Virus record (IMG/VR): IMGVR_UViG_2936984999_000007
Source of the DNA: a virus
Direction: 5' to 3' (one strand)
DNA: 64,000 bases
Below are positions 2,742-33,832 of the stretch, piece by piece. Position numbers and translations under genes: made by a program. Every line of letters begins with the position of its first letter. Position 1 is the first letter of the stretch. The notes below the pieces were generated by a model, which was not told where the DNA came from, made no database searches, and saw only the letters and a list, made by a program, of their open reading frames with translations.

Positions 2742-3401
2742 TCATTTCACCTCGCTATTCTTCATGGAGTCTTTCAGAAAATCATTGTGGAGTTCAGGAA
2801 GAACTGGCAGCTGATATCCTTTTGCCGCGAGGATGTTCAGCTTAAAATCTACGAAGTGTTTTTCAATTTCGATTTTCTGGGCAATCTCAGCCGGGGTGAG
2901 TACATCACCGTGTGTATACAGGAATTCCTGTAAAAGTTCCTGATACTTCATCGCCCGGTAAGCTGCAGATGCGTGGGATGGCATATTTGTCTCCAGATGA
3001 ATCCGGTCGGCATTGAATTCGTAATAGCCAATCGGTTTAAGAATATCATCGTCCGACAGAAGCAGTTCGGAAGCAAAGATATTTGCTCGTCTTTCTGCCT
3101 TGGAGTTGTCCAGACTATAAAAATAGGTGTCTTGAAATGCCTGGCCGGAGCTGGCATGCTTCCGGTCAAACAGTGCGTGTCCCAGTTCATGAGCCAGAGC
3201 AGATATACGCTGGGCAGCTGTACAATTCGGATTGATGCCGATATATTCGCAGTTCAGCAGGACGGTATAGTAACCCAGAAGGTCGTGGCAAAAACGGATG
3301 TCTTTCAATTTGATAGCCCGTTGTGAGATGATTTCTTCTGGATTCCGGGTCTTATAGCGGCGAACCACAGCATCGGCGGTATCAATTATGCGTGTGTTCA
3401 A
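2742..3401 (-). CDS. immA: ImmA/IrrE-family zinc metallopeptidase (anti-repressor protease)
   Basis: HEXXH motif (AHELGHALF) and DUF955-like architecture. TTG start with RBS GGAGGAAAGGAG. Lies directly downstream of the XRE repressor in the same operon. Confidence 0.8.
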   Translation of the reverse strand: MNTRIIDTADAVVRRYKTRNPEEIISQRAIKLKDIRFCHDLLGYYTVLLNCEYIGINPNCTAAQRISALAHELGHALFDRKHASSGQAFQDTYFYSLDNSKAERRANIFASELLLSDDDILKPIGYYEFNADRIHLETNMPSHASAAYRAMKYQELLQEFLYTHGDVLTPAEIAQKIEIEKHFVDFKLNILAAKGYQLPVLPELHNDFLKDSMKNSEVK

Positions 3402-3436: not shown

Positions 3437-3946
3437 TTACCGCAGATATTTTTTTGGAGTAAATTTCTTCGCATCAGCTTTTGCATCGAGGAAAAGTGCT
3501 TCCATTTCTTTGATAAATGCCGCTTGATCTTCTTCGGACAGTTCACCGCCTGCAAATAGAGCTGTGGTCTGTTCTTTTATTTTCTTTGCCTGTGCAACAC
3601 CACGGGAGCCATACTTTTTTCGTACATCTGCATAGAAGAGGTCATCGTTGAGTTCTTGCTGGAAAGTGGCCTCATCCATAAAATAATCAGTGGTGACTCC
3701 AAGAGCTGCGGCAATCTTCTGGATTGCATCTACGCTTGGTTCACGCTGGTTGGATTCAATATAGCGGATCGCACGGTCTGACATAGAAGCCCGACGTGCC
3801 AGTTCAGCCATACTCATGTGCTGGGCGGTGCGGAGGGCTTTTATTTTATCTCCGTTGGTTGCGTCAGGAGCCAGAGTAGTGGCGGCTTCTGCCTTGGCAT
3901 CCTGTGTGTTAAGTGGACTGGTTTCAAAGTTTGTTTCTTTTTTCAT
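3437..3946 (-). CDS. immR: XRE-family HTH repressor (ImmR/CI-like)
   Basis: HTH: IKALRTAQHMSMAELARRASMSDRAIRYIESNQREPSVDAIQKIAAALG. Preferred start is the ATG at 3946 (MKKETNF) with RBS GGAGG. The ORF-track start at 4000 has no RBS. Confidence 0.8.
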   Translation of the reverse strand: MKKETNFETSPLNTQDAKAEAATTLAPDATNGDKIKALRTAQHMSMAELARRASMSDRAIRYIESNQREPSVDAIQKIAAALGVTTDYFMDEATFQQELNDDLFYADVRKKYGSRGVAQAKKIKEQTTALFAGGELSEEDQAAFIKEMEALFLDAKADAKKFTPKKYLR

Positions 3947-4025
3947 GTCATGCCTCCATGTGGGATAACCTGTTGTCTGTTGGAGGGAAAGCACCAACAT
4001 TTACAACATAATTTTGTAAAGCTAC

Positions 4026-4054
4026 TTGACAAGGAACAACTGTTCCTATATACT
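4026..4054 (+). promoter_or_regulatory. sigma-A-like promoter TTGACA-17-TATACT, overlapping operator O1
   Basis: Hexamers at 4026-4031 and 4049-4054. The spacer contains the palindrome AGGAACAACTGTTCCT (4032-4047). Confidence 0.55.
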
Positions 4055-4069
4055 AAGAACAAAGGTTCG

Positions 4070-4083
4070 GGAACTCATGTTCC
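4070..4083. promoter_or_regulatory. operator O2, GGAAC-TCAT-GTTCC palindrome (same family as O1)
   Basis: Perfect 5+4+5 palindrome. Overlaps the -10 of the leftward immR promoter. Confidence 0.55.
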
Positions 4084-4084
4084 T

Positions 4085-4113
4085 ATAATACAATAGAAGG
4101 TTGTAGAAGTCAA
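4085..4113 (-). promoter_or_regulatory. sigma-A-like promoter for immR (TTGACT-17-TATTAT on the minus strand)
   Basis: Reverse complement of 4108-4113 is TTGACT; reverse complement of 4085-4090 is TATTAT; 17 bp spacer. Confidence 0.55.
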
Positions 4114-4196
4114 GAGGTGATTTTGGAAGTAATTCGTTGAAATGTATGGTGAAAAGGGTACACTAAAAACATTTCAAAAATTAAATTGGAAATGTA

Positions 4197-4225
4197 TTGA
4201 CTTATACTACGATAGATGATAGTAT
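4197..4225 (+). promoter_or_regulatory. promoter TTGACT-17-TAGTAT in front of the S/M genes, flanked by GAAATGT/ACATTTC half-sites
   Basis: Half-sites at 4140, 4168, 4190, 4237 and 4246. The perfect palindrome ACATTTCAAATGT lies at 4239-4251. Confidence 0.5.
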
Positions 4226-4275
4226 ATGTACATGAAAAACATTTCAAATGTATAAAACGAAATGGCGGTGAAAGT

Positions 4276-4887
4276 ATGAATGTTGAATTTGGAGATTTGA
4301 TGGGAATGAGCATGGTCGGAAGCATCATGTCCAGACTGCAGATAAAAGAGGATGACAGGATAAAGGGAATCAAAGCTGAAAAAGTTACCGTTCTGGTACC
4401 GAAAGCAATTTCTAATGGTAGTGTAAACCATCAAGAGTTGACAGAGTACGAGGTAAAGGAAGGAAGTGGACAATCACGGCTGACTGTTGTCGATGATATT
4501 GTTATAAAGCTGACAACACCTTATAGCTGTGCGCTGATTACGGAAGAAGATGAGGATTTGGTTGTTCCGTCCTATTGTATGATATGCAGAGATTTTGATA
4601 CGCAAGAAGTGGATTTAGACTATCTGGTTGGCTATCTGAATACTGAATATGCACGACAACTTCTTACGGCTGGGGTTGCTGCAACAACCAATTCGATGTT
4701 AAAGCCTAAAGATGTACATCGACTTCCAGTACCAATGCTTCCAATAGAGGAACAGAGATTGCTTGGGAGACTTTATAGGCTGAGTTCTGAGAAACAGTTG
4801 GTGTTGAAGCAGATGCTTACGAATGAAGAAGCGATGGCAGATAATCTTATAACATCAGCGATTTTGGGGGTGATGAAGGATGAATGA
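4276..4887 (+). CDS. type I restriction-modification specificity subunit-like protein (half-HsdS, single TRD)
   Basis: C-terminal conserved HsdS region: LDYLVGYLNTEYARQLL ... LPVPMLPIEEQRLLGRLYRL. The ORF-track start at 4216 lies inside the promoter, so the ATG at 4276 (RBS GGCGGTGAAAGT) is preferred. Confidence 0.6.
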   Translation: MNVEFGDLMGMSMVGSIMSRLQIKEDDRIKGIKAEKVTVLVPKAISNGSVNHQELTEYEVKEGSGQSRLTVVDDIVIKLTTPYSCALITEEDEDLVVPSYCMICRDFDTQEVDLDYLVGYLNTEYARQLLTAGVAATTNSMLKPKDVHRLPVPMLPIEEQRLLGRLYRLSSEKQLVLKQMLTNEEAMADNLITSAILGVMKDE

Positions 4888-6343
4888 TATAAAGTTGGTT
4901 GAAAGTAACGAACAGCCGATGAAAAATCATTTGCTATCGAGTCATGAAAGGATTCGATCAATATATTGGGCAATAGAATTAGAACTACGAGGCTGGGATA
5001 TTAGAAGTGCTTTTGTAGGGGGAACGGTATCTGCTATCGTGTATGTGACTTTTCTAAAATACATCTCAGACAGAAGAGATCAGTTAGGACTACAAGTTTC
5101 AGACTTGTATAGATATGATGCCTTGCTTAATCTATATCCAAATGTGGTTAACCAGCAAGAATTGTGCGAATACCTGGATGATGTGGAAAGACAACTGGGG
5201 CTTTCTCAGCGGCTGCTCCAAAATTTTGTGCTGGACATAAAAAGCCCTAATTTAGATACAAAATTTTTGAATGCTTTACACATTGCAAATGAATTGGACT
5301 TTAGAAGTAATGATATAGCACAAATTGAAATCGAAGAGCTTGTTCGTATTGTGGAAAAGGTGATTGAATCAGAAGGGAAGGTAAGTGGGCTTGTATATAC
5401 GCCTTGGGCTATTTCGACTTTAATGAGCGAAATCTGTCAGATTAAAGATGGAATGTCCGTATATGATCCGTGCGCTGGTTGTGGACTTTCTCTTATTCAA
5501 GCAATAAGAGGGAAAGACGTTAGCGTATTTGCACAGGAACAAAATATGCACATTGCTGCAATTCTTGAAATGCTACTTATTATGACTGGTGTGCGTAAGG
5601 GAGCAGTCCGGTGCGATGATTCGATTTGGCATCCATTAACGCAGACTTTCAATCAGAAGTTTGATTGTGTTATCAGTGAGCCGCCTTATATGAGGCCAGA
5701 AACATCCTATAGAATGTCGATTGATAAAAATCTGATTGGTCAAGTCTTATACTATCCGGACCAGAAGATTGAGGATACGTGGATTTTTATTAGACATATA
5801 GTGGCGTCTCTTAAAGAGAATGGCAAAGCAGCGGTACTAGTGCCAATGTCAATGCTAACTCGTGAAGGATCAGCTGCTGTCAGTAGGAAGAAACTGATAG
5901 CAGATGGTTATATAGATAGTGTTATTGAACTTCCGGCAAACGCATTCTCAAATCGGAATATGAAAACATCAATTCTAATTTTGCGTAAAGAAAGGCCGAT
6001 TCATAATATATATATGCTGGATCTGTCGAGAGGCTTATGGGACGAAAAGTGTAAGACTGGAAAAGATGGAATTGCCGAAATTACAGAGATGGTGCTTAAT
6101 CGTAAAATAGTTACGGGTGCGTCAGATATAGTAGAAACGGAAGAAATTGTTCAAAACGCTTATCAGTTAGGAGTTTCTCGTTATGTGCCGCAGGAAATTG
6201 ATGTGGAACAGTTTTTAGCAGATTCCGTAAAGCTGTATCGGACGGCAGATAAGCTGGAAGCAAAGTTTGAAAGATTATGCAGAGAGTTTAAAGAAGCAAT
6301 GGATGATTATAATGGATATTGCAATGAAAGAAAGTCGAAATGA
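4880..6343 (+). CDS. N6-adenine DNA methyltransferase, type I HsdM-like
   Basis: Motif I LVYTPWAISTLMSEICQ ... VYDPCAGCGLSL. Motif IV variant VISEPPYM (EPPY in place of NPPF). Overlaps the stop of the S gene. No R subunit in the window. Confidence 0.7.
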   Translation: MNDIKLVESNEQPMKNHLLSSHERIRSIYWAIELELRGWDIRSAFVGGTVSAIVYVTFLKYISDRRDQLGLQVSDLYRYDALLNLYPNVVNQQELCEYLDDVERQLGLSQRLLQNFVLDIKSPNLDTKFLNALHIANELDFRSNDIAQIEIEELVRIVEKVIESEGKVSGLVYTPWAISTLMSEICQIKDGMSVYDPCAGCGLSLIQAIRGKDVSVFAQEQNMHIAAILEMLLIMTGVRKGAVRCDDSIWHPLTQTFNQKFDCVISEPPYMRPETSYRMSIDKNLIGQVLYYPDQKIEDTWIFIRHIVASLKENGKAAVLVPMSMLTREGSAAVSRKKLIADGYIDSVIELPANAFSNRNMKTSILILRKERPIHNIYMLDLSRGLWDEKCKTGKDGIAEITEMVLNRKIVTGASDIVETEEIVQNAYQLGVSRYVPQEIDVEQFLADSVKLYRTADKLEAKFERLCREFKEAMDDYNGYCNERKSK

Positions 6344-6356
6344 AGGAGGAAACCGT

Positions 6357-6554
6357 ATGGAGAATGAAATCTATCCAATTATGACAGAGGATGGAAAAAT
6401 GTTTTGCAAGTGTCGTAATGATGGAACAACAGTTGAACTGATTGGAAAAAACTGCTCGATGTCTATACAGGAACTTGTATCAAAGGCTTCAAATCCGAAA
6501 ATGGCACAGCAGCGCCGGTTTAAGCGGAAAAATAGAACGACAAAACAAATTTAA
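6357..6554 (+). CDS. small hypothetical protein (65 aa)
   Basis: Strong RBS AGGAGGAAACCGT before the ATG at 6357. The ORF-track start at 6267 would overlap the MTase. Confidence 0.3.
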   Translation: MENEIYPIMTEDGKMFCKCRNDGTTVELIGKNCSMSIQELVSKASNPKMAQQRRFKRKNRTTKQI

Positions 6555-6740
6555 GAAAAAAATGCTAGGCAACCCTGCGATATGGCCACAGTGTGCAAGC
6601 GGATTATTTCCCCCGAAGCATTGGACTGTGCGGTTATAGAACCTAATCATATCGACAAATCAGAGGAAGTCAGTAGAACAAATACGAATAATTTCTTACT
6701 CTAGAGCGAACCGAGTGGGATGGAATCCACTAAGAGAAAA

Positions 6741-6835
6741 GCCGGGGTAGATAAAAGTTTTATGGTATAGCCTGTACTCAAATTATTTTGAGTCTTGCAG
6801 ACAGGAACTTTTATCTTCCTCGGCTTTTTTTGTTG
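6741..6835. terminator. large compound hairpin (about 23 bp imperfect stem with a nested hairpin) followed by T7
   Basis: AAAAGCCGGGGTAGATAAAAGTT ... AACTTTTATCTTCCTCGGCTTTTTTT, with inner stem CTCAAA/TTTGAG. Ends the S/M operon. Confidence 0.55.
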
Positions 6836-7007
6836 GTATCAGCATAGACAAAATATTTTAGCATAATCGTTAATATACTTAAATATAACAAAAACATACA
6901 GAAAAATATATATTTCGGCGCGAAAAACGCAATCTGTTTCGATGTCGAAAAAGACACAAACAGGATATTATAAAGTAGGGAACTACACAGGAGAGGAGGT
7001 GGATTGA

Positions 7008-7355
7008 GTGACCGAGGAAGAAAAGCGGTTCCATGAAAAAATGGCTGACCGACTAATTGAAACACGAGAAGCAGCGGGAATGACGCAGGAGAAACTGGCC
7101 GAAAAAGTCGGCCTCCAAAGCAACTCAATCCACCGATATGAAGCCGCAGAGCGAAAAATCAACCTTTTTACAGCTGTAAAGATGGCCGACGCTCTTAATA
7201 CAACAGTGGACAAGCTGGTTCCGGAGGAGTACATACACAAAACTGAAAAGACGGATATTGAGAGAGAAGCAGAGGATGTATTCCACCAGCTATCACCAGA
7301 AGAACAAAAAATGCTCCTTCGACAGATGAAGGGGCTGCTGGCAGTACCAGCATGA
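7008..7355 (+). CDS. XRE-family HTH protein (Cro-like early regulator), GTG start
   Basis: HTH: REAAGMTQEKLAEKVGLQSNSIHRYEAAERKINLFTAVKMADAL. RBS AGGAGGTG. AT-rich promoter region 6840-7000 contains the TTTCGA-TG-TCGAAA inverted repeat. Confidence 0.6.
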   Translation: MTEEEKRFHEKMADRLIETREAAGMTQEKLAEKVGLQSNSIHRYEAAERKINLFTAVKMADALNTTVDKLVPEEYIHKTEKTDIEREAEDVFHQLSPEEQKMLLRQMKGLLAVPA

Positions 7356-7443: not shown

Positions 7444-7794
7444 GAGCGGGAAACATATCTTCAACAGTCTGGTTGAGGAAAGCCGTTGGTCATTTTGTTA
7501 TCATGTAATCAGTCCAAGGGACAAGCCCACAGAGTCAAATGAAAGCATCTGTCGGCAAGCCCCGGACAAATAAAAAAATATCGTAAGCCCGATTCTAGAG
7601 CAGGCGAAGGATACCATAGCAGAACTTCACAGAACAGCGATTTATTTGCTGGCTGTGGAGGTGTGCGGTTGGGATTATTCCTGCTGTCTCTGGAATCGGG
7701 CTTTTTTGTTTTATGCTCCTGCCAGATAGATCAGTGCCTCATCAGCATCCTGCTTTGGTATCTTTCCCTTTCAGAGTCCGGGGGAAAGGACAAA

Positions 7795-8553
7795 ACAATG
7801 ATGATGAACATGATGACTGGAGCAGTTGCAATCAATGGTGGCGTTGGTGTGATGGAGGTCCGCCAGCCGCAGGTAATGGAGAAAGCGGTACAGGACGCAG
7901 GACATATCGCCGCCGATATCGCGGAGAACGCACACATTACCTTACATGAACTGAAGGAAAAGATCGATGCAGTGGTGGAGAAAAAGCTGCCGAGTTTCAA
8001 GGCCCTCATGGAAATGAATCCGATGGCTGTAGCCCGGACGACTGTGAATGATGCTTCTCTGACTGTTTACCAGAACGGCTATGCAGTTTACGAGATGGAC
8101 GGCGCACACACGGTCATGGCAGTGGAGCGCTGCGGGGATTACCGCTATGACTTCACGGACGATACATATCAGGTAGTGCCGGCTGAGACTTTTGAGGAGA
8201 CTGAGTGGAGCGTACGTCTGCTCATGGAAGGGGAACGCCGGATGGAGCACAATCGGAATAATCGTACTGCTGAGACTGAAAATGTGTCCCTGGAATGCGA
8301 TGGCTCCGACTGGTCCGCAGCAGTTATGGTGGATTTTTTGGATGAGGATAATGCCGAGATGTTGGCAGATCAGGAACTTCGCCGTCTGTATGCAGCCATG
8401 AGTAAGCTGACCGAGCGTCAGACGGAAATCCTTCAGCTTTATTTTTATAAAGGTATGAACCAATACGAGATTGCAGAGGAACTTGGCATCTGCCAGCAGT
8501 CGGTTAACCGGATCATGAATCAGGCAGTAAAAAGGCTGAGAAAAAATTTCTAA
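7795..8553 (+). CDS. sigma-70 region-4 domain protein (phage sigma-factor-like regulator)
   Basis: C-terminus LTERQTEILQLYFYKGMNQYEIAEELGICQQSVNRIMNQAVKRLRK matches a sigma-70 r4 HTH. RBS GGGGGAAAGGA before ATGATGATG at 7795. Confidence 0.55.
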   Translation, partial: TMMMNMMTGAVAINGGVGVMEVRQPQVMEKAVQDAGHIAADIAENAHITLHELKEKIDAVVEKKLPSFKALMEMNPMAVARTTVNDASLTVYQNGYAVYEMDGAHTVMAVERCGDYRYDFTDDTYQVVPAETFEETEWSVRLLMEGERRMEHNRNNRTAETENVSLECDGSDWSAAVMVDFLDEDNAEMLADQELRRLYAAMSKLTERQTEILQLYFYKGMNQYEIAEELGICQQSVNRIMNQAVKRLRKNF

Positions 8554-23151: not shown

Positions 23152-23338
23152 AAAAAAAACAAATAAGAGAATCCGAGGTCTGCTTTTTATCTTGGCGGCC
23201 CAATTTTTGAGAAATCCATTTTGTGAGATATAAATTTTGAGTTTCACCTGAAACAGAGCAGGCAACCTTTGTGGGAGCCTATTTGTGGGCATGGGCAAAG
23301 GCGGCCTGCTTTGTGATACAAGAAAGAGAGGACAGAAC

Positions 23339-24406
23339 ATGAGTAAGATTATCACCTGTGAACAGGTCAGCAACGGCCATCCTGATAAGATCTGTGACCA
23401 GATCGCAGATGCCATTGTGACCGACATTCTTCAGCATGACAAGCACGCCCGCGTGGCGATTGAGTGTCTGCTGAAAAAGAGCCAGCTCTTTATTGCTGGC
23501 GAAGTCACTACCGATTACCGCCCAAACTACAACCAGATCGTACACGATGTGTTCAATCGTATCGGTGCCGAAAAGCTGGGCTGGAACCTGACCGAGCTTC
23601 TTCGCATCGGCATTCTGGTGGACAAGCAGTCCCCGGACATTGCACTGGGTGTGGATAAGGGCGGTGCCGGTGACCAGGGAATCATGTATGGCTATGCCAC
23701 CAACGAGACGGCAGAGCAGATGCCGATTCCCTACATGGTCGCCACCAAGTTCCTGCAGCTTCTCAAGGCACATCCGTCTAAGATGTTCCGTGCAGATGCC
23801 AAGGCGCAGGTCAGCTACGATTACGACACCGGACGCATCACCACATTCCTCTGCTCTGTGCAGCACAGCCCAGATGTGGAGGTCAGCGACTTCCGGCACA
23901 TCATCGAATCCATGATGGTGCTTGCCGCCTGCGAGTATGGTCTGGACGGTGACTTCACGAAGCTGGTCAATCCGACCGGCCGTTTCGTTCTGGGCGGCAG
24001 CTACGCCGACTGTGGTGTGACTGGTCGGAAGCTGGCGTGCGATACCTACGGCGGCATTGGTCGCATGGGTGGCGGTGCTCTGAGCGGTAAAGACCCCACC
24101 AAGGTGGATCGCTCCGCAGCATACATGGCGAGGAAGATTGCCAAGGACATCGTGCAGGCGGGCTACGCTGACAAGTGCGAAGTCCAGCTGGCCTACGCCA
24201 TCGGTGTGGTACAGCCGGTAGGTGTGGCTGTGGAGTGCTTCGGTACTGAGCACCAGTCCCTTGACTTCATCGAAGCCTATGTCCATGACAGCTATGACCT
24301 GACCCCACAGGGTATCATCAAGCGGCTGGGACTGCTGGATGTAGATTACAACAAAGTCAGTGCTTACGGTCATTTCGGTAAGGCTGGTCTTCCGTGGGAG
24401 GACTGA
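23339..24406 (+). CDS. metK: S-adenosylmethionine synthetase (MetK)
   Basis: GHPDKICDQIADAIVTDIL and GAGDQGIMYGYATNET. Full-length alignment to MetK; RBS AGAGAGGA. Confidence 0.85.
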   Translation: MSKIITCEQVSNGHPDKICDQIADAIVTDILQHDKHARVAIECLLKKSQLFIAGEVTTDYRPNYNQIVHDVFNRIGAEKLGWNLTELLRIGILVDKQSPDIALGVDKGGAGDQGIMYGYATNETAEQMPIPYMVATKFLQLLKAHPSKMFRADAKAQVSYDYDTGRITTFLCSVQHSPDVEVSDFRHIIESMMVLAACEYGLDGDFTKLVNPTGRFVLGGSYADCGVTGRKLACDTYGGIGRMGGGALSGKDPTKVDRSAAYMARKIAKDIVQAGYADKCEVQLAYAIGVVQPVGVAVECFGTEHQSLDFIEAYVHDSYDLTPQGIIKRLGLLDVDYNKVSAYGHFGKAGLPWED

Positions 24407-26204: not shown

Positions 26205-27473
26205 ATGAAAGCGACTGCTGAACTAAAGATGCTGCCGGTGTCCGTACTCAAGCCGGCTGCATACAATCCCCGGAAAAAGTTGAAGCCGGGGGATAAAGAG
26301 TACGAGAAAATCAAGAACTCCATCACGGAGTTCGGCTTCGCAGATCCTTTGGTGGTCAATGCAGACATGACGATCATCGGCGGCCATCAGAGACTGACTG
26401 TTGCAATGGAACTGGGATACACAGAAGTGCCTTGTGCGGTGGTGGACATCGACAAGACCAGAGAAAAAGCTCTGAACATCGCACTCAACAAGATTACGGG
26501 TGCATGGGATGATTCTCTGCTGGCGGATCTTTTGAAGGACATCGAGGATTCCGATTTCGATCTCGGAAAGACGGGTTTTGACCCGCCTGAGATTGAGACT
26601 CTGTTCAACAAGGTCCACAGCAAAGAGGTCAAGGAAGATGACTTCGATGTGGAATCCGAGTTGAAGCAGCCATGCTTCTCCAAAGAGGGTGACCTCTGGC
26701 ATCTGGGAAAGCATATCGTTCTGTGCGGTGATTCTACCAAAGCAGAATGCTACAACACCCTGATGGACGGAACCAAGGCAAATCTGGTCCTTTCCGATCC
26801 CCCTTATAACGTGGATGTGGAAGAGACTGCCGGTAAGATCATGAATGACAACATGGGCGATTCGGAATTCTACCAGTTCCTTCTGGCAGCGTTCCAGCAG
26901 ATGCACGACCATCTTGCAGACGACGGTTCCATCTACATCTTCCATGCAGATACGGAAGGGCTGAACTTTAGAAAGGCATTCAAGGATGCCGGGTTCTACC
27001 TGTCCGGGTGCTGTATCTGGAAGAAGAATGCGCTGGTGCTGGGCCGTAGTCCTTACCAGTGGCAGCACGAACCGTGTCTCTACGGCTGGAAGCAGAAGGG
27101 GAAGCACCAGTGGTATTCCGACCGGAAGCAGACGACCATATGGGAGTATGACCGGCCGAAGTCTAACAAGGATCATCCGACCATGAAGCCCATCGGCCTG
27201 ATGAGCTATCCAATCCGCAATTCCACTATGACCAACGGCATCGTCCTCGATCCGTTCCTCGGCAGCGGCTCGACCCTGATCGCCTGTGAGGAGACCGACC
27301 GTGTGTGCCGGGGCATCGAGCTGGACCCGAAGTTCGTGGATGTGATCGTGAAGCGGTACATCGAACACAGCGAAGGTCATTACGATGATGTGTATGTCAT
27401 CCGGGATGGGCAGAAGCTGAAGTTCGAGGAGGTGGCGACCTTCGAGCCGGAAAGCGAGGATGCCGATGCCTGA
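26205..27473 (+). CDS. ParB-like nuclease domain fused to an N6-adenine/N4-cytosine DNA methyltransferase (beta class)
   Basis: ParB N-domain (GGHQRLTVAMELG). Motif IV SDPPYN precedes motif I DPFLGSGST. Confidence 0.8.
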   Translation: MKATAELKMLPVSVLKPAAYNPRKKLKPGDKEYEKIKNSITEFGFADPLVVNADMTIIGGHQRLTVAMELGYTEVPCAVVDIDKTREKALNIALNKITGAWDDSLLADLLKDIEDSDFDLGKTGFDPPEIETLFNKVHSKEVKEDDFDVESELKQPCFSKEGDLWHLGKHIVLCGDSTKAECYNTLMDGTKANLVLSDPPYNVDVEETAGKIMNDNMGDSEFYQFLLAAFQQMHDHLADDGSIYIFHADTEGLNFRKAFKDAGFYLSGCCIWKKNALVLGRSPYQWQHEPCLYGWKQKGKHQWYSDRKQTTIWEYDRPKSNKDHPTMKPIGLMSYPIRNSTMTNGIVLDPFLGSGSTLIACEETDRVCRGIELDPKFVDVIVKRYIEHSEGHYDDVYVIRDGQKLKFEEVATFEPESEDADA

Positions 27474-28239
27474 TGTGAAATGTGTTCTCATTCACGACAA
27501 CTTCCAGAACTTCAAGTCTTATAACATCCCCAAGGCACAGCTGGTGATCGCAGATATTCCGTACAACATCGGTACAGATTTCTACGCCAGCCGGCCGGAC
27601 TGGTATGTGGATGGCGATAACAAAAACGGGGAGAGCAGCAAGGCGAGGAAGGCGGCGTTCAATACCGACTTCACCTTCAACATTGCAGAGTATTTCCACT
27701 TCTGCAACCGCCTGCTGAAGAAAGAACCCGGCACGGGCGAGAAGGATGCGCCGTGCATGATCGTGTTCTGTGCGTTCCAGCAGATCCCGAAGGTGATCAC
27801 CGAAGCAGAGAAATACGGCTTCAAGAATTATATCCCTCTGGTGTTCTGCAAGAACTACAGTCCGCAGGTGCTCAAAGCCAACATGAAGATTGTGGGTGCA
27901 ACAGAGTATGCGCTGGTGCTGTATCGGGGAAAGCTCCCGAAGTTCCGTAATCTCGGTGAGGACGGAAAGCCCCACATGATCTTCAACTGGTTTGACTGGA
28001 AGAGGGATGGCAAGGAATATCCGAAGATCCATCCTTCCCAGAAACCGATCTCTGTGCTGAAACGACTGATCGAGACCTTTACAGATGAGGGCGATGTGGT
28101 CATTGACCCCTGCGCCGGCAGCGGTTCCACGCTGAGAGCAGCAAGAGAACTGGGGCGCAACAGCTACGGATTTGAAGTGTCCAGAGATTTTTACCGGAAA
28201 GCAAATGAGCAGATGCTCGGAGAGGAGGCTTCCGCATGA
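27460..28239 (+). CDS. DNA methyltransferase (amino-MTase, beta class)
   Basis: ADIPYN ... DPCAGSGST. Confidence 0.75.
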   Translation: MPMPDVKCVLIHDNFQNFKSYNIPKAQLVIADIPYNIGTDFYASRPDWYVDGDNKNGESSKARKAAFNTDFTFNIAEYFHFCNRLLKKEPGTGEKDAPCMIVFCAFQQIPKVITEAEKYGFKNYIPLVFCKNYSPQVLKANMKIVGATEYALVLYRGKLPKFRNLGEDGKPHMIFNWFDWKRDGKEYPKIHPSQKPISVLKRLIETFTDEGDVVIDPCAGSGSTLRAARELGRNSYGFEVSRDFYRKANEQMLGEEASA

Positions 28240-30491
28240 GCACAGAACAGAATAAGACTTTGACCCTCGGCAGCCTCTTTGATGGCTCCGGGGGTTTTCC
28301 GTTAGGCGGTCTTCTGACTGGGCAGATCACTCCGCTGTGGAGCAGCGAGATCGAGCCCTTTGCCATCCGGGTCACGACCAAACGTCTACCACAGGTGAAG
28401 CACTACGGAGATGTATCCGTCATCAGCGGCGCAGACCTGCCGCCTGTGGACATCATCACCTTTGGCAGTCCCTGTCAGGATATGTCCATCGCGGGTAAGC
28501 GGGACGGTCTGGATGGTTCACGGTCCAGTCTGTTTTACGAAGCAATCCGAATCGTGAAGGAAATGAGGTGTAAGACCAATGGAGAAAAACCAAGATTTAT
28601 CGTGTGGGAGAATGTGCCAGGGGCCTTCTCCTCAAACAAAGGACAGGACTTCAAAGCAGTCCTCGAAGCCGTCATCGGTGTTAAAGAACCGGCCGCCTCG
28701 GTGCCTGCGCCTGAGAAGAAAGGATGGCCCGACGCTGACTACTACGTGGGAGACGGATGGAGCGTCGCATATCGAGTTCTTGATGCACAATGGTGGGGCG
28801 TTCCCCAAAGACGAAAACGTATCTACCTTGTCGCAGATTTTGCAGGTCAGAGTGCCCCAGAAATATTATTTAACTCCGAGGGCTTGTCTCGGTATTCTGC
28901 GGAGGGCTTCCGTGCGTGGCAAAGAGCTGCCGCCGGTGTTGAAAGCGGCACTGGAGAGGCAGGCTGCAACGGAGCAGGAGGACGGATCTGTCTGAACGAC
29001 CAGGGCGGAGAGCGGATGGATGTGACAGAGGAAGTGACAGCCACCCTCCGTGCGGAGGCACATCATCCCCCGTGTGTTATGGAAGCAGCTGGTTTCTGTA
29101 CCGAGCATTCCGCAAATGCCAGAAGCATCGGATATGAAGAGGAGCGGTCACCGACTCTCCGAGCTGGTGTCGTACCGGCCGCCATCGCACTGGAAAATCA
29201 TCCTGCTGACAGCCGGGTGAAGATTTCCGAGGATGATAAGGTGCAGACACTGACAAGCCGGTGTGGTACGGGTGGCGGTAATGTCCCGATGGTTATGGAT
29301 GCTGTTGAAAATTCAGTGGAAAGCCAGGTGAAAGATGTTGAAAACTCCCCGGCGGTCACGTTAAAGATCCGTTCCGGATGTGAAGGTGGCGGAAAGGGAG
29401 CCATCTGGCAGGAAGAAAAGTCTGCCACTCTTGGCTGCAACAACGACCAGACACTGTTCGTTCCGAAATGCTATGGTGTCTGCTCAAAAGCCAGCCACTC
29501 CATGATGTCCGACAATCCGCACAGCGGTTTTTATGAAGCGGAGACCTCCCGGACACTGGATCGCAGCGGTGGAGACCCGACTTGCAATCAGGGCGGCATC
29601 TGTGTGGTAGAGCCGGTCGCCTTTACTCAGAATCAGAGGGATGAAGTCCGGGATCTGGGAGATAAGTCGGCGGCACTGGCAGCAGAGCCGGGGATGAAGC
29701 AGCAGACATTCGTGGCACAGCCGGAAGATGTGACAGCTTTCCATGTGAACCAGCGCAATGAGCTGATTGACCTGCATGGCAAGTCCGGGGCTTTGATGGC
29801 GACCCGGAGTGATCAGATGCAGACCTTTGTCCTGCAGGGCAACATGATCGGTCGCAAAGATGAGAATGGCCCACAGGGGGATGGTGTCAATGAGGATGTC
29901 TGCTTTACACTGGATGCCACTGACCGCCATGCAGTCTGCGCACCGGAGGATGTGTATGCCATGACCACCGGCTCCTATATGCAGGTGGCAAAAGAAGTCG
30001 CACCGACTCTGATGGCACGGGATTACAAAGACCCGACCACCATCGCACCGGCACCACATCTGAACGAGGGTGTGGCTGGTACTGTGGCGACCGGGGCACA
30101 TCCCAGCGGCTTCAATGGGCAGGATGCTTTCAATGACCGTCTGGTCATCGACAACCCGGAGGCACAGTCCACCCCTGTGACCTACACCGTCCGCCGCCTT
30201 ACACCGACCGAGTGTGCCAGACTGCAGGGCTTCCCGGACTGGTGGTGCAGAGACCTTGGAACGGAGAATCCGACCGAGGAAGAGCTGGCGTTCTGGACAG
30301 ATGTGTTTGAAACGCACCGCAAGATCGTGACCCATGCCAAGAAGCCGAAGACGGAGAAGCAGATCCGGAAATGGCTGGCTGACCCGTATACGGATTCGGC
30401 AGAGTACCGTATCTGGGGTAACGGCATTTGTTTGGCCAACGCATTTTTTGTTCTGGCCGGCATCGCATGGTGTGCAGGTCTGGAAGAATAA
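28236..30491 (+). CDS. DNA cytosine-5 methyltransferase, unusually long (751 aa) with an expanded variable region
   Basis: Motif I FDGSGGF, IV GSPCQDMS, VI ENVPG, VIII QRRKRIY, IX/X RRLTPTECARLQGFPD. About 420 aa between VIII and IX, containing several TL/RDYKDP-type segments and internal repeats. Confidence 0.85.
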   Translation: MSTEQNKTLTLGSLFDGSGGFPLGGLLTGQITPLWSSEIEPFAIRVTTKRLPQVKHYGDVSVISGADLPPVDIITFGSPCQDMSIAGKRDGLDGSRSSLFYEAIRIVKEMRCKTNGEKPRFIVWENVPGAFSSNKGQDFKAVLEAVIGVKEPAASVPAPEKKGWPDADYYVGDGWSVAYRVLDAQWWGVPQRRKRIYLVADFAGQSAPEILFNSEGLSRYSAEGFRAWQRAAAGVESGTGEAGCNGAGGRICLNDQGGERMDVTEEVTATLRAEAHHPPCVMEAAGFCTEHSANARSIGYEEERSPTLRAGVVPAAIALENHPADSRVKISEDDKVQTLTSRCGTGGGNVPMVMDAVENSVESQVKDVENSPAVTLKIRSGCEGGGKGAIWQEEKSATLGCNNDQTLFVPKCYGVCSKASHSMMSDNPHSGFYEAETSRTLDRSGGDPTCNQGGICVVEPVAFTQNQRDEVRDLGDKSAALAAEPGMKQQTFVAQPEDVTAFHVNQRNELIDLHGKSGALMATRSDQMQTFVLQGNMIGRKDENGPQGDGVNEDVCFTLDATDRHAVCAPEDVYAMTTGSYMQVAKEVAPTLMARDYKDPTTIAPAPHLNEGVAGTVATGAHPSGFNGQDAFNDRLVIDNPEAQSTPVTYTVRRLTPTECARLQGFPDWWCRDLGTENPTEEELAFWTDVFETHRKIVTHAKKPKTEKQIRKWLADPYTDSAEYRIWGNGICLANAFFVLAGIAWCAGLEE

Positions 30492-31843: not shown

Positions 31844-31999
31844 GCTCTCAAGCCCCCAGTGGGGGCCGGAAAATATGCGAGACCCTCTTCCATTGTACTG
31901 ATATTAGCTCTGAAAATGTACATTATCAAGCGGATAAACTGCAGAAATGTACACGATCATTCCTCTCAATATTTGTCGAATATATGTTCTTTTATGGCC

Positions 32000-32028
32000 T
32001 TGCTATTATGTGCACCTGACGGTAATAT
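32000..32028 (+). promoter_or_regulatory. cassette promoter copy 1 (TTGCTA-17-TAATAT plus conserved leader GCACATACCGAAAGGGAAAAC)
   Basis: Member of the 7-copy family; drives the amidoligase. Confidence 0.55.
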
Positions 32029-32075
32029 GCACATACCGAAAGGGAAAACAAGGAAAAAGCAAAGGAGAACATACC

Positions 32076-33014
32076 ATGAACGATAAAACAAGAGAGCAGA
32101 TTGAAGCCATGAAGAACCAGACCATCGGAGTTGAGATCGAGATGAACAACATCACCAGAGAAAAAGCGGCAAGAAAGGTCGCTGATTACTTCGGAACCAG
32201 AGCATGGAACGCCGCCAGCGAGTACGGATATTACAGCTGGGCTTGCAAAGACCAGCAGGGCAGGGTTTGGAAATTTCAGAGGGATGTGAGCATCTACGGG
32301 CCAGACGCAGAAAAATGCGAACTGGTCACCCCGATCCTCACCTACGACGACATCGAACCCCTGCAGGAAATCATCCGACTGCTCCGCAAGGCAGGCGCAA
32401 AGAGCGGCCCAAGCCGCGGATGCGGGGTCCACATCCACATTGGCAAAGGCGACCACACCGCAAAGACCATCCGCAACCTTGTGAACATCATGGCGGCACA
32501 CGAACAGCAGATCGGAAGAGCCATCCGGATTGATGCAGGACGCACCGGACAATATTGCCGGGTAGTCGACCACCGCTTCCTCGACCGGCTGAACCGCGAG
32601 AAGCCGACCACCATGCGCAAGCTGGAAGACATCTGGTACGAAGGCAACGGTTCCAGCTGGGAAAACCGGAATGTCCACTACAATTCAAGCCGATACCATA
32701 TGCTGAACCTCCATGCCACCTTTACAAAAGGGACCATTGAATTCCGCCTTTTCCAATTCGCAGACCCAGCGGACGGAAAGCGCAACGGACTGCATGCCGG
32801 TGAGATGAAAGCTTACATCCAGCTTTGCCTCGCAATGAGCCAGCTTGCCAAGATGGTCAGAACAGCAAGCCCGAAGCCCCAGCAGACCGACAACGAAAAG
32901 TACGCGATGCGGTGCTGGATGCTGAGGCTGGGATTCATCGGGGATGAATTTGCAACGGCAAGGGAGATTCTTCTGCGGAACATGGAGGGCAACGCATCCT
33001 GGCGGAACAAATAA
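32076..33014 (+). CDS. amidoligase (glutamine-synthetase-like, Amidoligase_2 family)
   Basis: IGVEIEMN start, YGPDAEKCELVTP, GCGVHIHIG. RBS AAAGGAGAAC. Confidence 0.6.
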   Translation: MNDKTREQIEAMKNQTIGVEIEMNNITREKAARKVADYFGTRAWNAASEYGYYSWACKDQQGRVWKFQRDVSIYGPDAEKCELVTPILTYDDIEPLQEIIRLLRKAGAKSGPSRGCGVHIHIGKGDHTAKTIRNLVNIMAAHEQQIGRAIRIDAGRTGQYCRVVDHRFLDRLNREKPTTMRKLEDIWYEGNGSSWENRNVHYNSSRYHMLNLHATFTKGTIEFRLFQFADPADGKRNGLHAGEMKAYIQLCLAMSQLAKMVRTASPKPQQTDNEKYAMRCWMLRLGFIGDEFATAREILLRNMEGNASWRNK

Positions 33015-33081: not shown

Positions 33082-33318
33082 ATGAAAAGCACGTTAAAAA
33101 ATGAAAACACACCGGGTGGCAGAGCCTTTAAGGTGACCATCACCGAGACCTACCAGAGGACGGTGACCATTTATGAATCTGAGATGAAAGAGCCGACCGT
33201 GGAGGAAGCCCAGCGTGTGGCAGAGGACTGGTGGCAGGACAGCCAGATCGAGCTTGGGACAGAGGATTTCCAGGGCGTGGAATTCACTGGCAGGGAGGAC
33301 GGTGAGGCAGATGTTTGA
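33082..33318 (+). CDS. small hypothetical protein
   Basis: RBS GGAGGTG. Confidence 0.3.
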   Translation: MKSTLKNENTPGGRAFKVTITETYQRTVTIYESEMKEPTVEEAQRVAEDWWQDSQIELGTEDFQGVEFTGREDGEADV

Positions 33319-33832
33319 ACTGATCAGCCGAGTCCCATCCAAATATTACCTTGCCTATGGAAGCAACCTCGACATGGAGCGGATGGGAAAGAGATGCCCT
33401 TACGCTGTGGTGGTCGGCACGACCGAGATCAAGGGCTACCGGCTCCTGTTCAAAAAGAGTAAGACCGGCTGCTATGCCACCATCGAGCAGGACGCCAATG
33501 AAAGCGTACCGGCGGTGGTCTGGAAGCTCTCGGAATATGATGAGCTCCTGCTGGACCGGTACGAGGGTTGCCCAAGATACTATTACAAGAAGCAGTTCCA
33601 GCTTCCGGTCTGGAACCTGAACGGGAACCGCATGAAAAAGGCAAAGCCCTGCACCGCTTATGTGATGCACGAGGACCGGCGGCTTGGCTGCCCGGATGCC
33701 GAGTATTTTGAACTGCTGCACGGCGGATACAGCGACTGGGAATTTCCGCTGGACACACTGAAGCGTGGACTGGCAGCCAGCATCGGAAGGGCGGAAGCCA
33801 TCCGGTATCTGAAGAAGCGGCAGATGATGTAA
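33311..33832 (+). CDS. gamma-glutamyl cyclotransferase (GGCT/AIG2-like)
   Basis: YLAYGSNL motif near the N-terminus. RBS GGGAGGACGGTGAGG. Confidence 0.65.
   Translation: MFELISRVPSKYYLAYGSNLDMERMGKRCPYAVVVGTTEIKGYRLLFKKSKTGCYATIEQDANESVPAVVWKLSEYDELLLDRYEGCPRYYYKKQFQLPVWNLNGNRMKKAKPCTAYVMHEDRRLGCPDAEYFELLHGGYSDWEFPLDTLKRGLAASIGRAEAIRYLKKRQMM

Follow-up and report, generated by a model that had tools for sequence, protein, structure and literature searches.

A mobile, nuclease-free operon built from a type I methylase core beside a prophage immunity switch

Positions 4134 to 6831 of the IMG/VR virus record IMGVR_UViG_2936984999_000007 (64,000 nucleotides, the whole of which is referred to as the window) comprise a self-contained, horizontally mobile operon, which derives from the methylase core of a type I restriction-modification (R-M) system and lacks the nuclease. 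This operon, termed the cassette, consists of box 1, a promoter, box 2, the genes of an HsdS-like specificity subunit (S') and an HsdM-like subunit (M'), the gene of a 65-aa basic protein, a structured RNA-like element and a terminator, in that order. We propose, with a probability of about 0.45, that the cassette is a guard or decoy defence module of the Ronin/PrrC kind, which would be expressed by the lysogen. An earlier note on this DNA had viewed the S and M genes as an orphan methylase or a donor of methyl marks. This view is kept as the main rival; however, the conserved S', together with relatives that carry TIR, HEPN or MazF partners or adjoin complete type I systems, points to a sensor/guard role at least as strongly as to an epigenetic methylase.

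Anatomy of the cassette

The earlier note had taken the pair of genes as the unit. Both genes stand, but the unit also holds the small protein, the RNA-like element and the terminator. Its features are as follows.

4134–4275, + strand: regulatory region, kept upstream of S' whatever the context; left boundary at about 4134, from comparison with the related locus L008
4158–4195, + strand: box 1, GTACA-N6-ACATTTC-N13-GAAATGT; abuts the −35 hexamer and forms a direct repeat with box 2
4197–4225, + strand: promoter TTGACT-17-TAGTAT with an extended −10 TG
4228–4265, + strand: box 2, GTACA-N6-ACATTTC-N13-GAAATGG; stretches from just past the −10 hexamer to the ribosome-binding site
4276–4887, + strand: S', HsdS-like subunit of 203 aa with a single target recognition domain (TRD), assigned by PADLOC, NCBIfam and the family profile
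4880–6343, + strand: M', HsdM-fold subunit of 487 aa (Pfam N6_Mtase, 2.5e-44)
6357–6554, + strand: third gene, 65-aa basic protein, 13 nt past M', with a strong AAGGAGG ribosome-binding site
6564–6676, + strand: structured RNA-like element of 35 base pairs (termed R1), with conservation at the DNA level and compensatory changes
6714–6731, + strand: small conserved hairpin with a GAUGG loop; a similar hairpin precedes the terminator in the cassettes of the L004 type
6736–6831, + strand: long-stem intrinsic terminator that ends the cassette, its stem kept with compensatory changes

The left boundary was placed at about 4134 because L008, a Blautia metagenome-assembled genome whose cassette is 96% identical to that of the window, has lost the equivalent of 3945–4133 and keeps everything from 4134 on. 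The deletion, around position 7250 of L008, removed the repressor start codon together with the operator/promoter region, which suggests that L008 is a decaying prophage that has retained the cassette.

The assignment of a type I-like pair with S before M, already made in the earlier note, was confirmed by PADLOC, NCBIfam, Pfam N6_Mtase and structural matches. S' matches Specificity_I of PADLOC (E 1.4e-11) and the type I S family of NCBIfam (2.3e-6), and a match at 4e-8 links the profile of the S' family to the solved HsdS chains 5ybb_D and 3okg; it covers the coiled-coil helix and the second half of a TRD. The two Pfam families named in the earlier note gave a split result: M' matches N6_Mtase, whereas the window S' stayed below the threshold for Methylase_S in the Pfam scan. 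The start of the S gene had been placed at 4216, which falls within the promoter; it was moved to the ATG at 4276 because every homologue begins with MNVEFGDL. The S' and M' genes overlap by 8 nt. S' is predicted to dimerize and to bind two M subunits.

Alignment of the S' family (A3) gave a mean column identity of 70% with the TRD included, and conservation is equal in the TRD and the coiled-coil part. In all 66 of 66 cassette pairs, the identity of S' exceeds that of M'; compared to the window pair, for example, the identities of S' and M' are 84 vs 67%, 61 vs 47% and 42 vs 33%. Canonical type I families show the reverse pattern, in which HsdM is conserved and HsdS less so. The canonical combination of two variable TRDs with a conserved HsdM was not found in the cassettes, and selection on this specificity subunit would be purifying, not diversifying.

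The AlphaFold2 model of M' (mean predicted local distance difference test score, pLDDT, 85) aligns from end to end with solved HsdM chains, including those of the EcoR124I and EcoKI cores with Ocr or ArdA. The S-adenosylmethionine (SAM) motifs are intact and conserved in the family, namely motif I (DPCAGCG), motif II (QE) and motif III (D247). Motif IV reads SEPPY at residues 266–270, as the earlier note had read it, and aligns with the NPPF of canonical HsdM. The glutamate had been regarded as a single oddity; it is instead one state of a variable position, at which E and D alternate in the family and V, T, A, H or L occur in the superfamily. Among 17 close homologues, 15 have EPPY or DPPY, and the other two have EPPM (P0017, found on >24 contigs) and DLPI (P0019). 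An exhaustive profile search, in which roughly 900 proteins reached E <= 1e-30, gave V, T, A, H, L, E or D as the initial residue of motif IV in the nearest full-length representative clusters. PP followed by a hydrophobic or aromatic residue was mostly kept, in ~20 of the nearest 26 clusters; the usual HsdM proteins, which rank lower in the same search, have N at this position. Close M' homologues are 34–100% identical, and identity then drops to ~20–27% for canonical HsdM. M' thus belongs to a family clearly separate from the NPPF-type HsdM, as judged from sequence, whose members have E, D, V, T, A or H in place of the catalytic asparagine of HsdM. Matches to M' in IMG/VR (22–28% identity) are canonical NPPF HsdM and were not counted as family members. 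An identity as MADS, raised by PADLOC matches to mad2 and mad5, was rejected as no other MADS gene is present.

The promoter reported in the earlier note was recovered at 4197–4225 by the consensus scan, and the private set of GAAATGT/ACATTTC sites around it holds as well. GAAATGT occurs 11 times in the window against 10.8 expected, which is the chance level; 4 of the 11 copies cluster within 4139–4245 as members of a 37-nt direct repeat (4158–4194 and 4228–4264, at a spacing of 70 bp). The full box is present in the window only at the promoter of the cassette. An equivalent of box 1 was found in 14 other cassettes, and the −35 hexamer TTGAC in 14 of the 15 related cassettes searched; the relatives inspected by eye share the layout TTGACx-17-TAnnAT. 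Across the cassettes the box takes the form GTACA-N6-A(C/T)ATTTC-N12/13-GAAAT(G/A), with one copy just before the −35 hexamer and a second just after the −10 hexamer, and this box-promoter-box layout is also kept in relatives whose M' is only 26–35% identical to that of the window. The heptamer depends on the clade.

ACATTTC: window family
ATATTTC: L134, L136, L216 and L218
ACATTA: L125
ATATA(T/A)C: L135
ACATGAC: L214

The boxes are more likely a DNA operator, since the RNA hairpin that box 2 could form (ACAUUUC/GAAAUGG) is weak (−3.7 kcal/mol, z ~0 to 0.5) and box 1 lies outside the transcript of the cassette promoter. A hairpin in the 5' untranslated region acting as a translational switch was rejected as the sole explanation, as it is weak and absent in L001 and as box 1 is not transcribed. 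A palindromic GAA-N6-TTC target within the box was also rejected, because reading of the sequences showed that it is not conserved between cassettes. S' and M' are the sole proteins common to all cassettes, which makes them the simplest candidates for a factor that binds the boxes, and S'M' is accordingly predicted to do so. The half-sites ACATTTC-N13-GAAATG are ~20 bp apart, a spacing that seems too wide for a type I core whose coiled coils have the ordinary length.

The third gene encodes a protein of pI 9.6 without a transmembrane (TM) segment (maximum 19-aa Kyte-Doolittle value 0.41). It is 70–97% identical among homologues, a conservation above that of S' or M', and its homologues lie 3' of S'M' in L122 and in the very divergent cassette of L214. 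The AlphaFold2 model (pLDDT 62) has three strands, helices and a disordered basic tail. No match was found in Pfam, PHROG or PADLOC, no significant match in the fold search, and no match to a helix-turn-helix (HTH) family. The small protein is basic in every type of cassette, and its kind changes between cassettes while the box stays.

Downstream of this gene, R1 is conserved at the DNA level between cassettes whose M' is just 43% identical. In the R1 alignment, 97% of the cells are paired, compared to 31–39% when the structure is slid, and compensatory changes occur at 6 pairs. A covariance model located R1 only directly 3' of a small gene of the window type, in the window, L008, L009, L122–124 and L214/215. 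Three of these copies, each between the window-type small open reading frame (ORF) and the long terminator, have the following positions.

L009: 2561–2672
L122: 11304–11414
L214: 9732–9843

Rfam gave no match in the window or in 3900–7100, either at the gathering threshold or at E <= 1, and a pattern search of IMG/VR did not find R1. The predicted fold of 6540–6840 has an energy of −85 kcal/mol (z −4.6); its terminator was missed by a simple terminator scan because the loop is too long. The cassette also defines a new pair of small protein and putative RNA.

Mobility, relatives and prophage context

All recovered loci have an S' of ~200 aa that overlaps the start of M', and the small gene follows in all of them except L126. 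The cassette recurs as a unit in unrelated contexts, including loci that resemble defence islands.

Prophage immunity region, in the same slot right of the repressor in related prophages: window, L009, L004–7 and L127–131
Likewise in a prophage immunity region: L214/215
Beside a holin and group II intron remnants: L001–3
Among AbiEii, ParE/Phd and PDDEXK-ATPase genes: L122–124
Near AbiH: L220

The close family was found in just 2 of 185,579 species genomes, and the deposited phages and plasmids yielded no S' homologue and no close M' homologue. In the prophages of the DPPY clade, a protein of 674–684 aa with an HEGTH motif (HExxH type, recognized by eye) and a faint C-terminal HTH lies between a LexA-like repressor and the cassette (L004 7176–9212, L127 5768–7822 and L130 5799–7823); it is absent from the window. 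The gene of 678 aa in the phages of the L004 type was judged to belong to the immunity region and not to the cassette.

Six further branches of the superfamily were placed in their context, five of which were informative.

L218: S'-M'-TIR_2, alone among housekeeping genes
L136: S'-M'-ApeA_NTD1/HEPN_Apea, then two HsdM genes and one HsdS gene
L216: box-promoter-box, orphan PemK/MazF, S', M', HsdR, HsdM, HsdS, a 266-aa gene and AbiTii
L135: PemK, S', M', a 283-aa protein, HsdM, HsdS and HsdR
L134: S'-M', directly followed by HsdM and HsdS
L214: in the prophage slot of the window, with an HPPY-type M', a homologue of the window small protein and the R1 RNA

S' and M' alone occur in every cassette; the third partner can be exchanged and may be a small basic protein, TIR, ApeA-HEPN or an orphan MazF. 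Such a design, in which two proteins are constant, the toxic partner is exchangeable and the whole is often joined to the system that it resembles, usually marks a sensor-effector defence system. In L216 (7071–7409) and L135 (4258–4605), the orphan PemK/MazF toxin gene stands first behind the box-flanked promoter, and no MazE-like ORF was seen.

In the window, the cassette sits next to the immunity switch, as the earlier note had it, with an HTH_3 repressor and an ImmA/IrrE protease directly to the left. The prophage genes that bear on the cassette are the following.

2742–3401, − strand: ImmA/IrrE metalloprotease, left of the cassette beyond the repressor
3437–4000, − strand: HTH_3 repressor, likely start near 3946, directly left of the cassette
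4026–4087, + strand: rightward phage promoter TTGACA-17-TATACT; the operator repeats that overlap it (GGAAC-N4-GTTCC) are unlike the cassette boxes
23285–24406: SAM synthetase, part of the prophage methylation set, as are the next three
26205–27473: ParB_N and N6_N4_Mtase fusion
27460–28239: second N6_N4_Mtase
28236–30491: C5 cytosine methylase of 751 aa

The strong rightward promoter at 4026–4087 reads into the cassette and would meet the terminator at 6736–6831 before an HTH gene (7008–7355) and a sigma-like gene (7663–8553). The absence of an R subunit stated in the earlier note extends to the whole 64-kb window: phmmer with canonical HsdR gave no match at E <= 10 among all of its ORFs. Pfam scans of the large ORFs of the window identified phage replication, packaging and tail genes, and in most of the related loci examined no hsdR adjoins the cassette. 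The SAM synthetase and the three other DNA methylases lie in the replication module; with these at hand, the phage would not need S'M' for the usual self-protection by methylation.

Elsewhere in the window, the middle region encodes an Amidoligase_2 (31947–33014) and a GGACT/AIG2-like gamma-glutamyl cyclotransferase (33215–33832), possible genes for the modification of small molecules or macromolecules. At the left end, a 266-aa protein (1033–1833) appears by eye homologous to a 264-aa protein at the same position in the prophages of the L004 type; together with a DUF6809 protein at 1897–2280, it appears to be part of a conserved prophage end.

Proposed function and rival explanations

In the guard model, two S' and two M' subunits (S'2M'2) would mimic the methylase core of a type I system and act as a sensor or decoy, with a role other than marking DNA for a restriction enzyme; methyl transfer may still occur, given the E/D-PPY of most close relatives, but would not be the purpose of the module. 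In the uninfected lysogen, S'2M'2 would silence the partner by direct binding, by repression of the promoter via the two boxes, or by both, and it probably occupies both boxes and keeps its own promoter repressed. A phage or conjugative element that enters the cell would bring in a DNA mimic of the Ocr/ArdA type, which would occupy the DNA-binding groove of S'2M'2. Once this hold was lost, the partner would be released or over-expressed; in the window this would be the small basic protein, perhaps with the RNA. The outcome would be growth arrest or a blocked infection, and on a prophage the lysogen would be protected against superinfection. If so, decoy immunity of the Ronin type would be widespread beyond E. 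coli, with modular effectors, on temperate phages of human gut Clostridia, and it would run on a simple circuit in which the sensor doubles as its own repressor. A more specific and less probable form of this proposal holds that S' and M' are mimics for which catalysis is optional, seated on the boxes of their own promoter, and that anti-restriction DNA mimics of incoming phages or conjugative elements remove them and so derepress or unleash a co-transcribed toxin, be it the 65-aa protein with its RNA, TIR, ApeA-HEPN or MazF. It would imply that gut Firmicutes and their prophages have a broad, unrecognized family of decoy immunity systems, and that the trigger is transcriptional, which is not described for Ronin.

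Several observations weigh against the guard model. The 65-aa protein is hydrophilic and basic, without the TM helix that the Ronin effector RonA has and without a recognizable toxin fold, and it could be a regulator instead of an effector. The toxin-type partners were seen in relatives whose M' is 26–35% identical and in none of the window's own clade. That the box heptamer changes along with the S' clade might simply result from co-inheritance. The strictly conserved SAM motifs and the acidic residue plus PPY that the close family keeps are as expected of an active methylase. Finally, the sample is limited to ~15 genomic contexts.

The main rival, a serious candidate to which we give somewhat less credence, is that S'2M'2 is an active, autoregulated orphan N6-methyladenine methylase of fixed palindromic specificity, which the lysogen would express from the cassette's own promoter. 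It would mark host and prophage DNA, either epigenetically or as protection against widespread restriction, and the small protein would be its box-binding controller. The HsdM fold of M' is complete, with motifs X, I, II and III intact, and E and D alternate while PPY is kept in 15 of the 17 close homologues. DPPY is a standard active motif in the classification of Malone et al. (1995). The conserved S' would suit a fixed specificity like that of housekeeping orphan methylases, the operators that flank the promoter resemble C-box control, and basic small proteins in every cassette type would fit a controller. However, EPPM and DLPI persist in the family and V, T, A, H or L in the nearest relatives, the box remains constant while the type of small protein changes, and the phage already has three methylases and a SAM synthetase. 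Moreover, the TIR, HEPN and MazF partners of the relatives would be useless to an ordinary methylase. A literature search gave no active N6-adenine methylase with a natural EPPY tetrad, and the EPPL of METTL14 belongs to a non-catalytic partner. If M' were an active EPPY methylase, the accepted rule for amino-methyltransferases, (D/N/S)PP(Y/F/W), would have to be widened.

It is very unlikely that S'M' adds specificity to a host HsdR encoded elsewhere and thereby completes a type I restriction system in trans. The positions of S'M' directly upstream of hsdR-hsdM-hsdS in L216 and of HsdM/S/R genes in L135 and L134 would agree with such a role. Nevertheless, M' shares only ~20–27% identity with canonical HsdM, the non-canonical catalytic residues of the relatives would leave the host unprotected, the TRD does not diversify, which is the opposite of restriction specificity, and the cassette travels without hsdR in most contexts. 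Still less probable is a domestication of S'M' as a sequence-specific DNA-binding regulator of prophage or host expression with no defence role. It would agree with the universal presence of the boxes in the superfamily, with S' and M' as the sole universal proteins, with a heptamer that changes with the S' clade and with the place of the cassette at the immunity switch in several prophages. However, the window has its full box only at the cassette promoter and GAAATGT elsewhere at chance level, the cassette also occurs outside prophages, and the toxin-type partners would be left unexplained.

Comparison with known systems

Literature searches found no description of the S'-M' family, and the defence, phage and general profile libraries gave no name for the cassette proteins beyond type I M or S. 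The architecture of S' resembles that of half-size HsdS dimer cores (truncated EcoDXXI or EcoR124I HsdS and natural half-S genes), which likewise have one TRD and one coiled-coil helix. In these cores, however, the TRDs diversify and M is conserved, the opposite of what the cassette shows. Like the orphan methylases Dam, CcrM and CamA, the cassette has no cognate nuclease and a conserved specificity, and CamA is among the weaker structural matches of M'. By contrast, these methylases are single polypeptides with a canonical D/NPPY, and have no S subunit, linked small gene or RNA, or toxin-partnered relatives. A natural glutamate at the first position of motif IV (EPPL) marks METTL14, the non-catalytic, substrate-binding partner in METTL3-METTL14 (MT-A70 family); however, the latter is a beta-class RNA methylase in which METTL14 no longer binds SAM, whereas all SAM motifs are retained in the window M'. 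The repeated boxes at the cassette promoter recall R-M systems controlled by a C protein, though the small protein of the window has no HTH family match and a model of low confidence.

The likeness to PrrC/EcoprrI lies in an abortive-infection effector controlled by M and S within a type I locus, as the relatives of the window cassette carry HEPN (ApeA), TIR or MazF. PrrC is an anticodon nuclease that the EcoprrI complex keeps latent, and EcoprrI is a complete type Ic R-M system with HsdR and a canonical HsdM, whereas the window encodes no recognizable nuclease or RNase with the cassette.

In E. coli ECOR55, the Ronin system combines hsdS and hsdM with a closely linked gene of a 61-aa effector and has no hsdR. 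Ocr, ArdA or Aop1 triggers it to kill the cell; catalysis by the methylase is not required, but a non-coding region upstream is, which does more than serve as a promoter (Silas et al., bioRxiv 10.1101/2023.04.06.535777). Its authors compared it with PrrC/EcoprrI and used the term decoy immunity (bioRxiv 10.1101/2023.04.06.535777). Compared by the published description, both systems have hsdS and hsdM without hsdR, a linked gene for a protein of ~60 aa, an upstream non-coding region of their own and links to other defence systems. They differ in motif IV, which is a canonical NPPF in the HsdM of Ronin but EPPY in the window M' and variable across the superfamily. RonA is a membrane-active toxin with a TM helix, neutralized by HsdMS, whereas the 65-aa protein of the window is soluble and basic. 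The window further differs in a single-TRD S' that precedes M', a conserved pair of boxes and a structured RNA after the small gene, and the hosts are gut Clostridia for the window type rather than E. coli. Because of the non-canonical motif IV, the non-TM small protein and the different S architecture, the cassette, which would work like Ronin and PrrC, is regarded as a variant of this kind of system and not as a member of either.

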